From Patescibacteria group bacterium (GTDB lineage: Bacteria; Patescibacteriota; UBA1384; GWA2-35-9; JBASTP01): a DNA stretch of 58,881 bases. Shown here piece by piece: positions 28,617 to 30,526 of the stretch. The stretch covers positions 1-58,881 of the forward strand of contig JBASTP010000001.1 in assembly GCA_049274945.1 (NCBI GenBank). Reading direction: 5' to 3'. Numbering within the stretch: position 1 is the first letter of the stretch; each line of letters opens with the position of its first letter. Position numbers and translations under genes: made by a program. A model generated the notes under the pieces. The model searched no databases, had not been told where the DNA came from, and saw only the letters and a program-made list of their open reading frames with translations.

Positions 28617-29618
28617 ATGGCAAGAAAGACGACAGAGATGGCAAGAAAGACAGCAAGAGCGGAAAGAGCAGAAAAGGAGGTGGTGGTTAGGCCAGTCGAC
28701 CCCTACATCTATTTCAAGTTTGTAGGGCGTTGGACCGGAATGGTGGGAGGTGTCTCACCATCGATATCGACCACCGAAACCCACCTCGCCAAGATGGTGG
28801 AAGACGAGGAGAAACGACTTCGGAGAGAAGCTGTGAGCAGGCGTCCGTCGCAAGCTCGTGAGGCCGAACCTGTTGCCACCGAAGTGGTCAGCGCCGAGCT
28901 GTCAACGGAAGTTAACGGCAGCGAGTTGGCAGAAGTAGTCGAAGCCGAGATCAAATCCGAACGGCGCAAGTGGCTCGAGGAAGCTCTGAAAGATACGCGG
29001 CTCGATGCCGATGCCAGAACCGTCATCCAGAACGCGCTCAAGGAGCTGAACCCGGCGGAAAAAATCGTCCGCCAGATGCTCAAGATGACGAACACGTTTC
29101 CGAAAAACGGCGGCACAAACTTCTTCATCCCCAAGGCCTGGTTTTACGGCGGCCTCAAGGCGGCGGTCCAGGCCGATGGCCTGTACCCGTACGAGGACGC
29201 CGCCCAACGCCTGGCCAAGCGCTGCGTGGTGATCTACCCCGATCGAATCGATCTGGGAGTGAAAGAGCCGGACAACGTCCACACTGCCAATGTCACCCTC
29301 GGCAGGGTGGGACCCGGCGAAGCGCAATCTTCGATCAAGCGCTTCCACATGGTGCGGCCGCGCCAGGAGCAGTTCATCCTGGTGATTGCGGTGGTGGATG
29401 CGGTGTCCGCGGCTGCGCTCATCGCCAACATGCAACGCGTCTTCACCATCATCGGCAACAACGGCCTTGGGGGCGGGCGCCCGTCCTACGGCCAGTTCGA
29501 GGTCGTGGAATGCCGCCGGTTGCCCAAAAACGATGAGGGTGACCAGGAAGCCAAAGAGCTGATCGCGCAGCTCAGCGCCTCACACGACAACCCGGGCGAC
29601 GATACCGATCTCGAGTAA
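28617..29618 (+). CDS. RAMP-like (Cas7/Cas5/Cas6-type RRM) protein candidate A
   Basis: AAAGGAG ribosome-binding site. Charged N-terminus, FFIPKAWFYGGLKAAV (like the RAMP IPGSSLKGALR motif) and a C-terminal glycine-rich loop NNGLGGGRPSYGQFEV (29463-29498). Paralogous to the next ORF. Confidence 0.5.
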   Translation: MARKTTEMARKTARAERAEKEVVVRPVDPYIYFKFVGRWTGMVGGVSPSISTTETHLAKMVEDEEKRLRREAVSRRPSQAREAEPVATEVVSAELSTEVNGSELAEVVEAEIKSERRKWLEEALKDTRLDADARTVIQNALKELNPAEKIVRQMLKMTNTFPKNGGTNFFIPKAWFYGGLKAAVQADGLYPYEDAAQRLAKRCVVIYPDRIDLGVKEPDNVHTANVTLGRVGPGEAQSSIKRFHMVRPRQEQFILVIAVVDAVSAAALIANMQRVFTIIGNNGLGGGRPSYGQFEVVECRRLPKNDEGDQEAKELIAQLSASHDNPGDDTDLE

Positions 29619-29627
29619 CCGACCAAA

Positions 29628-29638
29628 TTCCTTGATTC
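29628..29638 (+). repeat. solo copy of the array repeat between the two RAMP-like genes
   Basis: TTCCTTGATTC lies 10 nt after the stop of gene A and 3 nt before the ribosome-binding site (AAGGAG 29642-29647) of gene B. Confidence 0.8.
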
Positions 29639-29653
29639 TGAAAGGAGAGCAAA

Positions 29654-30526
29654 ATGCCCGAAAGAGTTGACATAATTCCGGCAAACTGTACCAACTGCTA
29701 CCGCTGCGAGTGGGTGCTGCGCGACGGGAGCCTGTGGGAGGCATCCGTACCGGTCAATACCAGAAGCCTAACTGGCTGGTTTGGCGCCATGCCCTACGAG
29801 AAGAAACAACTCGAACGGGCGCTGGCAGGGGTTCAGGATGAAGCCGAGCAACTCCGCATTGTCCAAGACCACCACGCCCACATAGCCGATAAAGCTGCCA
29901 AGGTGCTCGAAGAAACTACTCGAGGCTTCACGCACCAGGACCAGGATTCCATGATCCCGGGCGATATTCGATTCAAGCGCACCCGGAATCTCTCTTTGTT
30001 TTTCGGCGCCGGGAATATTCTTGGAGCCATCAAGGAGGCAGCCTGGTACCAAACCGATAATCCGGGCACAAAACGCCGGCTGAGCGGCGATCCGCCAAAG
30101 TTGTACCTGCGGCCGGGAAAGGTGGTGATTTTTCGCCCCCACACCGACGGGTATACCAGAATCCCGGTTACCATGGCTGACGGCAGGCACGAGCGCCACA
30201 GCCCACCGGAGGCGCCAGGCCCCAAGAATATGTTCAGGGGCAAGAAGGCCACCTCGGTGTTCGCCGAGTATGTAGGCCCACCGGCCAACTTGGCCTTCTA
30301 CCTATGGGTTGACCCGAAGGCAGCATCCATGGAACAACTTGAACTGTGGTCGCGCGTTGCCGGCGACCTTGGCCTGGGGGGATACCGCCAGATGAGGCAA
30401 GGCCAGTTTAACGTCGTAACGTTTGAAGAACTCGGCGACGATGCCAAACAGCGGCTCCTCCAACAGGGGAGGCAAAAACAGGAGATCGAGCAAATGGAGG
30501 AACTGGTCGCCCAAACCACCCAATAA
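29654..30526 (+). CDS. RAMP-like protein candidate B (paralog of A)
   Basis: CxxCxxC near the N-terminus, GAGNILGAIKEAAWY, KVVIFRP (compare CVVIYPD in A) and a glycine-rich loop DLGLGGYRQMRQGQFNV (30371-30409). Confidence 0.5.
   Translation: MPERVDIIPANCTNCYRCEWVLRDGSLWEASVPVNTRSLTGWFGAMPYEKKQLERALAGVQDEAEQLRIVQDHHAHIADKAAKVLEETTRGFTHQDQDSMIPGDIRFKRTRNLSLFFGAGNILGAIKEAAWYQTDNPGTKRRLSGDPPKLYLRPGKVVIFRPHTDGYTRIPVTMADGRHERHSPPEAPGPKNMFRGKKATSVFAEYVGPPANLAFYLWVDPKAASMEQLELWSRVAGDLGLGGYRQMRQGQFNVVTFEELGDDAKQRLLQQGRQKQEIEQMEELVAQTTQ

Follow-up and report, generated by a model that had tools for sequence, protein, structure and literature searches.

The DNA analysed here (the window) is a 58,881-nucleotide stretch of contig JBASTP010000001.1 from a Patescibacteria group bacterium, an ultrasmall groundwater organism, in which two adjacent open reading frames, ORF A and ORF B (hereafter A and B), lie among three arrays of a short repeat. 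This locus is probably a VIPR-like RNA-guided system. It most likely represents a diverged form, with two proteins, of the systems named VIPR, for Viral Interference Programmable Repeat, which were reported by the Doudna laboratory and combine a Vipr RAMP protein with a vap gene and a vrRNA (10.64898/2026.04.26.720920, 10.64898/2026.04.26.720927). Its anatomy independently matches the VIPR class: the register is of five nucleotides, purines are excluded from a pyrimidine position, the two bases (NN) that follow the pyrimidine are under selection, units hold 8-16 pentamers, the RAMP carries a helical insertion and the locus consists of two genes. The first-pass annotation of this DNA had described the locus as belonging to no known CRISPR-Cas type, which is literally true, although the class is already present in the 2026 VIPR preprints and the novelty is less than was assumed; should the family also stand in the unpublished tables of the VIPR authors, the finding would be confirmatory rather than new.

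In VIPR systems an ancestral RAMP of ~20 kDa, Vipr, is accompanied by an accessory vap gene (vap1-6, encoding DNA-binding, nuclease or helicase proteins) and by a vrRNA in which 9-16 YNNGG pentamers are capped by an invariant 3′ tail (10.64898/2026.04.26.720920, 10.64898/2026.04.26.720927). Vipr forms a helical filament with one protomer per pentamer, which sequesters GGY, the Y pocket excluding purines, and leaves NN to pair with double-stranded DNA in such a way that every third target base, usually a codon wobble position, is skipped; the outcome is transcriptional silencing, and the guide function has been shown experimentally (10.64898/2026.04.26.720920, 10.64898/2026.04.26.720927). Seven types have been described, and the authors count 667 systems; variant repeats of the forms NNNGG, YNNNG and NNNNG and variant array architectures are mentioned as well (10.64898/2026.04.26.720920, 10.64898/2026.04.26.720927).

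Pentamer-periodic arrays and their evolution

The repeat arrays noted in the first-pass annotation on both sides of the two genes are real, with 24 copies of the TCCTTGATTC-type repeat in the window (seven on the minus strand at 27742-28083, seven before A, one between A and B and nine after B), but a CRISPR-like nature was not borne out. The arrays are pentanucleotide-periodic tracts punctuated by a repeat of 10-14 nt, and CRISPR-type repeat/spacer arrays are excluded. The repeat (TCCTTGATTC followed by NNYG) is non-palindromic; related loci carry, each in its own form, the variants TCCTCGRTTC, TYCTCGATTC, CCTCRTTGATTC, TCATKGATGC, TTTTCGATTC and TTGTTTC, and the semi-conserved NNYG follows the repeat in all of them. 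Within array 2 the repeats start at 28182, 28235, 28283, 28335, 28397, 28459 and 28522, the repeat copies spanning 28182-28531.

Start-to-start unit spacings are 43, 48, 53, 58, 63, 68, 73 and 83 nt (5n+3), with 48 of 69 unit lengths leaving a remainder of 3 on division by 5 (chi-square p = 8e-23) and no signal mod 3, 4, 6 or 7 in these 69 units. Base composition by position, taken from 112 repeats aligned on their 3′ ends, reveals a pyrimidine at every fifth tract base, G being found there in 1-7 of the 112; this pyrimidine rule holds separately in all eight locus sets (G 0-6%). The repeat itself, read as the two pentamers TCCTT and GATTC, shares the register of the tracts. A unit is made up of these two invariant pentamers, 6-14 variable pentamers and 3 nt, giving 8-16 pentamers in total, and the tracts between repeats measure 33-73 nt in 5-nt steps. 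The base two positions before the pyrimidine (G1) is depleted in A and enriched in G (35-47%), and the base immediately before it (G2) has a nearly even composition, the exception being the pentamer that directly follows the repeat, with G in 89/112. Strand composition of the arrays is strongly asymmetric. Tandem Repeats Finder left the window arrays undetected, and global Fourier power at period 5 is flat in them, since every repeat displaces the register by 3 nt; the periodicity becomes visible only with units aligned on the repeat.

Each of the three arrays is bracketed by a promoter-like site and a terminator-like hairpin (Table 1). The promoter-like sites of arrays 2 and 3 stand 10-22 nt ahead of the first repeat, in arrays 1 and 3 the final repeat is directly followed by a terminator-like hairpin, another such hairpin lies behind B, and array orientation, in which the transcript reads UCCUUGAUUC, agrees with promoter-to-terminator polarity in every case. 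Predicted array RNA shows no excess structure over shuffled sequences (z = 0.02 and 0.33). As a separate observation, in two related loci (L002 at 1794-2490, and L006) the bases before the repeat read CACCTCCT and, like the repeats (CACCUCCU...), resemble the 3′ tail of 16S ribosomal RNA (the anti-Shine-Dalgarno), which could be coincidence or mimicry.

Comparison of the window with the orthologous locus of a Candidatus Berkelbacteria contig (L001), whose four-fold sites are 64-76% identical (divergence 30-36%), shows which tract positions are maintained. Some 5-6 of 22 tracts are recognisably common to both, in scrambled order and in some cases in different arrays, and the indels between orthologous tracts are of 5 or 10 nt. 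In five cleanly shared tracts, substitutions across the pentamer positions number 3/49, 4/49, 14/48, 14/44 and 10/44, and six of the ten changes at the pyrimidine are C/T exchanges. The NN bases after the pyrimidine have changed at 7% of sites against 28% for the other three positions (Fisher p = 4.5e-5), so that NN is conserved about four-fold better than the rest, which drifts at about the neutral rate. Purifying selection in the shared tracts is thus shown for the two bases after each pyrimidine only. Between more distant loci, sharing of tracts or of NN strings does not rise above background.

Paralogous RAMP-fold proteins in a rare family

The two reading frames, of 333 and 290 aa, stand as first delimited (Table 1), and the paralogy proposed for them on the basis of a common order of sequence blocks is recovered at the level of profiles, pairwise BLASTP being blind to it (no similarity, E 3.4). 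Profile-profile comparison of nine A with five B sequences aligned 161 columns (probability 40%, E 3e-4), and with alignments enlarged to 22 A-superfamily and nine B sequences, by the inclusion of remote members and of B proteins translated from related loci, the match rose to a probability of 96.2% (E 2.5e-9, 146 columns). The aligned region covers NFFIPKAWFYGGLKAAV / LSLFFGAGNILGAIKEAAW and GLGGGRPSYGQFEVV / GLGGYRQMRQGQFNVV, and two remote members, P0030 and P0026, are matched by the hidden Markov models of both A and B. By profile comparison, then, A and B are paralogs.

Pfam, NCBIfam and PADLOC give no significant family match for either protein. The RAMP fold that the first-pass annotation had read from motifs is supported by AlphaFold2 models of moderate predicted local distance difference test (pLDDT) score (69 for A, 62 for B) with confident RRM-type cores, in both of which an α-helix leads through a glycine-rich loop (G-loop) into the last strand. 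Nearly all of the top 50 Foldseek matches in the PDB, for A as for B, are RAMPs (Cmr4, Csm3, type VII Cas7, Cas7-11, type IV Csf2, Cmr1/Cmr6 and Cas6), with probabilities up to 0.98-1.0. No profile or structure search assigned another fold or family, and the sub-threshold matches point the same way: RAMPs for P0026 and P0029 and Cas6_C for P0030 in Pfam, Csm4 for B in PADLOC, and Csm4 G-loops from several species when the family profile was compared with PDB sequences. A comprises an N-terminal β-hairpin, a helical insertion, the RRM core, a conserved thumb-like loop (PGEAQSSIKRF) and the G-loop (GLGGGRPSYGQF). Its most conserved segment, ANVTLGRVGPGEAQSSIKRF, is modelled with low confidence and would occupy the position of the Cas7 thumb. 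The G-loop motif is invariant, and R288 of A within it is one of only five invariant residues in the alignment of 22 family sequences.

Members of the family are extremely scarce and come for the most part from bacteria of the candidate phyla (CPR): at 90% identity there are nine clusters for A and four for B among 5.8 billion proteins, and a set of 1.84 billion representatives contains 18 clusters at 50% identity. The closest relatives of both A and B lie on the Berkelbacteria contig, JACPWR010000055, which encodes the proteins HYZ64_03270 and HYZ64_03265 and where the cassette is directly upstream of tuf; this 6.9-kb NCBI contig breaks off just upstream of the cassette and falls below the 20-kb cut-off of the VIPR authors. 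In all eight distinct related loci with enough flanking sequence, A is accompanied by a B homolog and by an array of this type. A and B occur together in Berkelbacteria, in Sungiibacteriota and on a number of contigs from groundwater and other metagenomes, one locus (L018) having A with two B-like genes. Flanking genes vary between loci, so the conserved module consists of A, B and the arrays. A gene for a trypsin-like (HtrA/DegP-type) protease is found near the cassette in two unrelated loci (L002/L003 at 6622-7656 and L006 at 8-961), which may reflect CPR synteny or chance.

More remote relatives occur in phages and are associated with pentamer arrays of canonical appearance. P0029, a RAMP relative of 175 aa on a phage-like contig (L012; JGI 3300009034 Ga0115863_1119866), is flanked by arrays of ~71 and ~29 uninterrupted NN-ATT pentamers (2191-2545 and 3094-3238), each with 13-14 different NN; the fixed trinucleotide is unlike that of VIPR, and the tracts are far longer than described vrRNAs. 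The upstream neighbour of P0029, considered as a B homolog, was rejected, the gene being a metallophosphatase. A homolog search with P0029 left it a singleton, and a scan of IMG/VR for (ATTNN)n returned simple microsatellites only, unlike the diverse L012 array. P0030 has a homolog (34% identity) in the Microcystis phage Mae-JY09 (L185 3209-3725, corresponding to PP395641 38460-38976), annotated as hypothetical; behind it, where the phage genome record ends, lie pentamer tracts rich in C that read NNNCC on the strand of the gene and GGNNN on the opposite one. This is probably an unannotated VIPR locus in a cultured cyanophage. An IMG/VR scan for repeat pairs gave coding tandem repeats only, with spacings in multiples of 3, and tblastn of IMG/VR with A as sole query found no A homolog.

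Relation to VIPR and to other RNA-protein systems

A search of PDB sequences with the family profile gave a weak match (E 1.6) to the Vipr protein of SUSP1, whose locus in KT454805.2 consists of a 195-aa gene (28474-29061, minus strand) with a YNNGG tract of 12 units upstream of it and additional tracts on its downstream side. Direct comparison of the A superfamily with SUSP1 Vipr by hhalign gave a probability of 48% (E 1.9e-4) over 26 columns covering α2, the G-loop and β4, with NGLGGGRPSYGQFEVV aligned against CGVGDWRPRFGRFSVE. In SUSP1 Vipr, R179 stacks on the pyrimidine, and D177 and W178 read the two guanines (10.64898/2026.04.26.720920, 10.64898/2026.04.26.720927). The alignment equates R179 with R288 of A, and D177/W178 with Gly-Gly in A and Gly-Tyr in B. 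Other features, too, are common to the locus and VIPR. A small RAMP-fold protein with RRM core, G-loop, thumb and helical bundle is found outside any CRISPR context; its gene is flanked by pentanucleotide-periodic RNA arrays with a strictly conserved pyrimidine that excludes purines; units contain 8-16 pentamers, vrRNAs having 9-16; it is the pair of bases after the pyrimidine that is under selection; the arginine of the G-loop is kept; and the minimal locus has two genes, with remote relatives in phages.

By analogy with the solved SUSP1 VIPR complex, RAMP protomers would polymerise along each unit, one per pentamer, each seating the pyrimidine in a purine-excluding pocket by means of the G-loop arginine (R288 in A, the counterpart of Vipr R179) and displaying the following NN for noncontiguous pairing with a DNA target. 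Binding would silence the target, silencing being proposed because no nuclease is encoded. A filament on repeat RNA was among the possibilities raised in the first-pass annotation and agrees with the solved VIPR mechanism; with regard to the crRNA complex also suggested there, the array RNAs are no crRNAs of the kind that carries contiguous spacers. The Gly-Gly of A at the positions of D177 and W178 appears to fit the lost conservation of GG in the arrays and, together with the kept arginine, may offer a simple reason for the retention of the pyrimidine alone. B, which keeps an aromatic residue at the W178 position, might conceivably bind the invariant repeat together with the near-canonical first pentamer (NN-K-G-Y), and one could speculate that it acts as a cap or nucleator in the manner of Cas5.

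Several observations weigh against assignment to VIPR. Sequence similarity to the bona fide Vipr does not reach past the G-loop and its surroundings (26 columns), and hhalign of B with SUSP1 Vipr is not significant (E 0.025). Foldseek E-values are weak (1.5e-3 and worse) for models of moderate confidence, and the Foldseek library is older than the Vipr structures, so that the structural matches are to RAMPs other than Vipr. The defining GGY motif is not conserved in the arrays, where Y alone is kept: GG is degenerate (approximately YNNgN or YNNNN), which falls outside the reported forms YNNGG, NNNGG, YNNNG and NNNNG. Described VIPRs make use of a 3′ tail with structure, of hammerhead ribozymes or of staggering by 1 nt. 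The arrays of the window are without a structured 3′ tail, their units being delimited by the short, unstructured and invariant element of 10-14 nt with its 3-nt register shift, which may act as a 5′ handle or as a 3′ tail. There is no vap-type accessory gene for a DNA-binding protein, nuclease or helicase, the sole conserved partner of A being its RAMP paralog B; the proteins are of 290-333 aa with long insertions rather than ~195 aa; and the setting is chromosomal, inside the str operon of a CPR bacterium. The selection test covers five tracts in one genome pair, a small sample that speaks only indirectly for NN as the carrier of specificity. As to targets, INPHARED phages searched with the array DNA gave no match, three conserved tracts (searched as contiguous sequence) and two long tracts (searched as gapped NN-x) gave none in IMG/VR, and in a multi-locus test with skip rules 0-3 and all five offsets the 1-nt-skip rule of VIPR did not rise above shuffled controls.

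Contiguous self-targets within the window are limited to chance-level 11-14-mers. Under the VIPR 1-nt-skip rule, the six-pentamer tract at 30714-30746 matches a site in the N6_N4 DNA methylase gene (Table 1) at 12/12 NN positions. This is the only perfect match of its kind to an array tract, and the bases passed over fall on the third positions of codons (N-E-I-S-W-K). Shuffled guides give a perfect match in 3% of trials. The match is marginal and serves as a lead only; no target is established.

Among the alternatives, the periodic RNA might scaffold or sequester the RAMPs in a non-guide assembly, in the style of type III toxin-antitoxin systems or of TRAP, with the variable bases carrying no information. 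TRAP on the trp leader RNA, with its 11 (G/U)AG triplets separated by 2-3-nt spacers, likewise places one subunit on each RNA unit of roughly 5 nt and combines fixed with free positions; it is a closed 11-mer ring of a different fold on a regulatory leader and has no guide function. The failure to find a convincing target and the L012 array of 71 pentamers, much longer than described vrRNAs, would accord with a scaffold, but a scaffold would constrain the bases in contact with protein and not those displayed, and in orthologous tracts it is NN that is conserved four-fold better while the other three positions drift near-neutrally. Since homologous VIPR systems have, moreover, been shown experimentally to be guides, we regard a non-guide assembly as unlikely. 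A further alternative is a minimal or degenerate class 1 CRISPR-Cas effector, with a Cas7-like backbone, a Cas5-like cap, contiguous spacers and a short repeat that serves only as handle. The resemblance to class 1 Cas7 (Csm3, Cmr4, type VII Cas7, Csf2) and Cas5 (Csm4) is considerable: a G-rich loop precedes the last RRM strand, a thumb-like loop is present, two RAMP paralogs have differentiated, an invariant repeat alternates with variable tracts that differ greatly between related genomes, and the best structural matches are Csm3, Cmr4 and type VII Cas7, with a weak one to Csm4. However, the periodicity is 5 nt and not 6, the pyrimidine at every fifth base constrains the tracts so that they are not free copies of protospacers, and only two of five positions are conserved between orthologs. 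CRISPR repeats of 23-50 nt separate unconstrained spacers of near-constant length, whereas here a non-palindromic repeat of 10-14 nt separates sequence-periodic tracts of 33-73 nt whose shared order is scrambled rather than polarised. There is no significant sequence-profile match to Cas7 or Cas5, and adaptation, processing and nuclease genes are lacking, the two RAMP genes alone being conserved across loci; cas1, cas2, cas6 and cas10 are absent from the window ORFs tested and from related loci. As the first-pass annotation had stated, no other cas gene was found, either among the neighbours (fusA, an IS110-like ORF and tuf) or in ten other large window ORFs (PADLOC). A class 1 effector is on these grounds quite improbable.

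Repeats in both orientations around a central region, and shared tracts that have changed order and array between the window and L001, could also be expected of elements acting as DNA, such as iterons, centromere-like sites or shufflon-type recombination sites, rather than of RNA genes. This reading is very hard to sustain given that array orientation always follows promoter-to-terminator polarity, that strand composition is strongly asymmetric, that both proteins have the RNA-binding RAMP fold with no match to a recombinase or DNA-binding family, and that sites spaced by 5 bp would alternate between the two faces of the DNA helix. The TIGR-Tas systems (arrays of tandem interspaced guide RNAs together with a protein that has a Nop domain), which are also present in CPR bacteria and phages, share with this locus short-repeat guide arrays, a noncontiguous (split) guide, the CPR host and, in the window, an adjoining IS110-like gene. 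Their arrays consist of two alternating repeats of 8-12 nt with 9-nt spacers in 36-nt units, whereas the present locus has one repeat, tracts of 33-73 nt and RAMPs with no Nop match, and the IS110-like gene is absent from the orthologous L001; a TIGR-Tas system is refuted by the anatomy of the arrays and the folds of the proteins.

VIPR has been proposed as ancestral to the CRISPR RAMP effectors, with RAMP duplication and diversification as a postulated later step (10.64898/2026.04.26.720920, 10.64898/2026.04.26.720927). If the locus is a VIPR-like guide system, it might, though we hold this to be doubtful, stand between VIPR and the effectors of class 1 CRISPR, either as an intermediate in evolution or as a step reached by convergence, and constitute an eighth, heteromeric VIPR type. 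In such a cellular, chromosomal system the ancestral RAMP would have duplicated into a filament former and a handle-binding cap (compare Cas7 and Cas5), base-specific reading of GG would have been lost, and guides would be carried as repeat-punctuated arrays of variable-length units. In a reduced CPR genome, the presence of two RAMP paralogs that have already diverged, of guide arrays delimited by repeats and of a relaxed pentamer code would bear directly on the model of descent from VIPR to CRISPR. The replacement of Vipr D177/W178 by Gly-Gly, alongside the loss of GG, would show which residues set the fixed bases of the code, and in practical terms the system could serve as a second scaffold, with relaxed sequence demands, by which RNA guides recognise DNA noncontiguously.

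Genomic setting and neighbouring features

The cassette is chromosomal and lies inside the str operon of its CPR host, in a region of ribosomal-protein and translation-factor genes with rpoC, rpsL, rpsG and fusA on one side and tuf and rpsJ on the other; its immediate neighbours are fusA, the IS110-like ORF and tuf. A scan of the whole window against Rfam at the gathering threshold gave no match.

Table 1. Coordinates of the arrays, genes and associated signals in the window
Feature	Position	Strand	Remarks
Terminator-like hairpin and T-run ending array 1	27718..27737	-	directly after fusA; bidirectional role possible
Array 1, 7 repeat copies (TCCTTGATTC on minus strand) and pentamer-periodic tracts	27742..28083	-	transcribed away from the genes
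Weak promoter candidate, array 1 (TTGAGG-17-TAGTAT)	28094..28122	-	proposed by eye; missed by the promoter scan
Promoter-like site (TTGACA-17-TATTCT, with TG)	28131..28159	+	~22 nt before first repeat of array 2
Array 2, 7 repeats and pentamer tracts	28182..28580	+	co-directional with ORF A and ORF B
ORF A, 333 aa, predicted RAMP fold	28617..29618	+
Single repeat copy between A and B	29629..29638	+	16 nt before ORF B start codon; kept in L001
ORF B, 290 aa, predicted RAMP-fold paralog of A	29654..30526	+	G-loop GLGGYRQMRQGQF
Terminator-like hairpin after ORF B	30543..30572	+
Promoter-like site (TTGACT-18-TATACT)	30612..30641	+	~10 nt before first repeat of array 3
Array 3, 9 repeats and pentamer tracts	30652..31113	+	unit lengths 43-83 nt
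Terminator-like hairpin and T-run	31126..31144	+	directly after last array 3 repeat
Marginal candidate self-target	58005..58021	+	12/12 NN match to tract 30714-30746, inside N6_N4 DNA methylase gene

Downstream of array 3, a 389-aa ORF at 31846-33015 is weakly IS110-like (NCBIfam NF033542, E 1.5e-4; Pfam Transposase_20, E 0.14), and its absence from the orthologous L001 marks it as a separate insertion beside the VIPR-like cassette. A bridge RNA could lie in the ~690 nt of non-coding DNA upstream of it (31160-31845). The interval from the IS110-like gene to tuf contains a 79-aa coiled-coil ORF (33442-33681) with weak matches to coiled-coil families alone. Further along, the segment 36001-38000 has a GC fraction of 0.38, compared with ~0.52 elsewhere in the window, and may be foreign DNA or a region of RNA genes. 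Towards the far end of the window, the N6_N4 DNA methylase gene (57660-58880; PF01555, E 2e-43) runs past the window end, and two genes from it a 362-aa ORF at 55809-56897 has Fic-domain matches of defence type (PADLOC SoFic, E 9e-19, and PDC-S04); together the two may form a small defence island.

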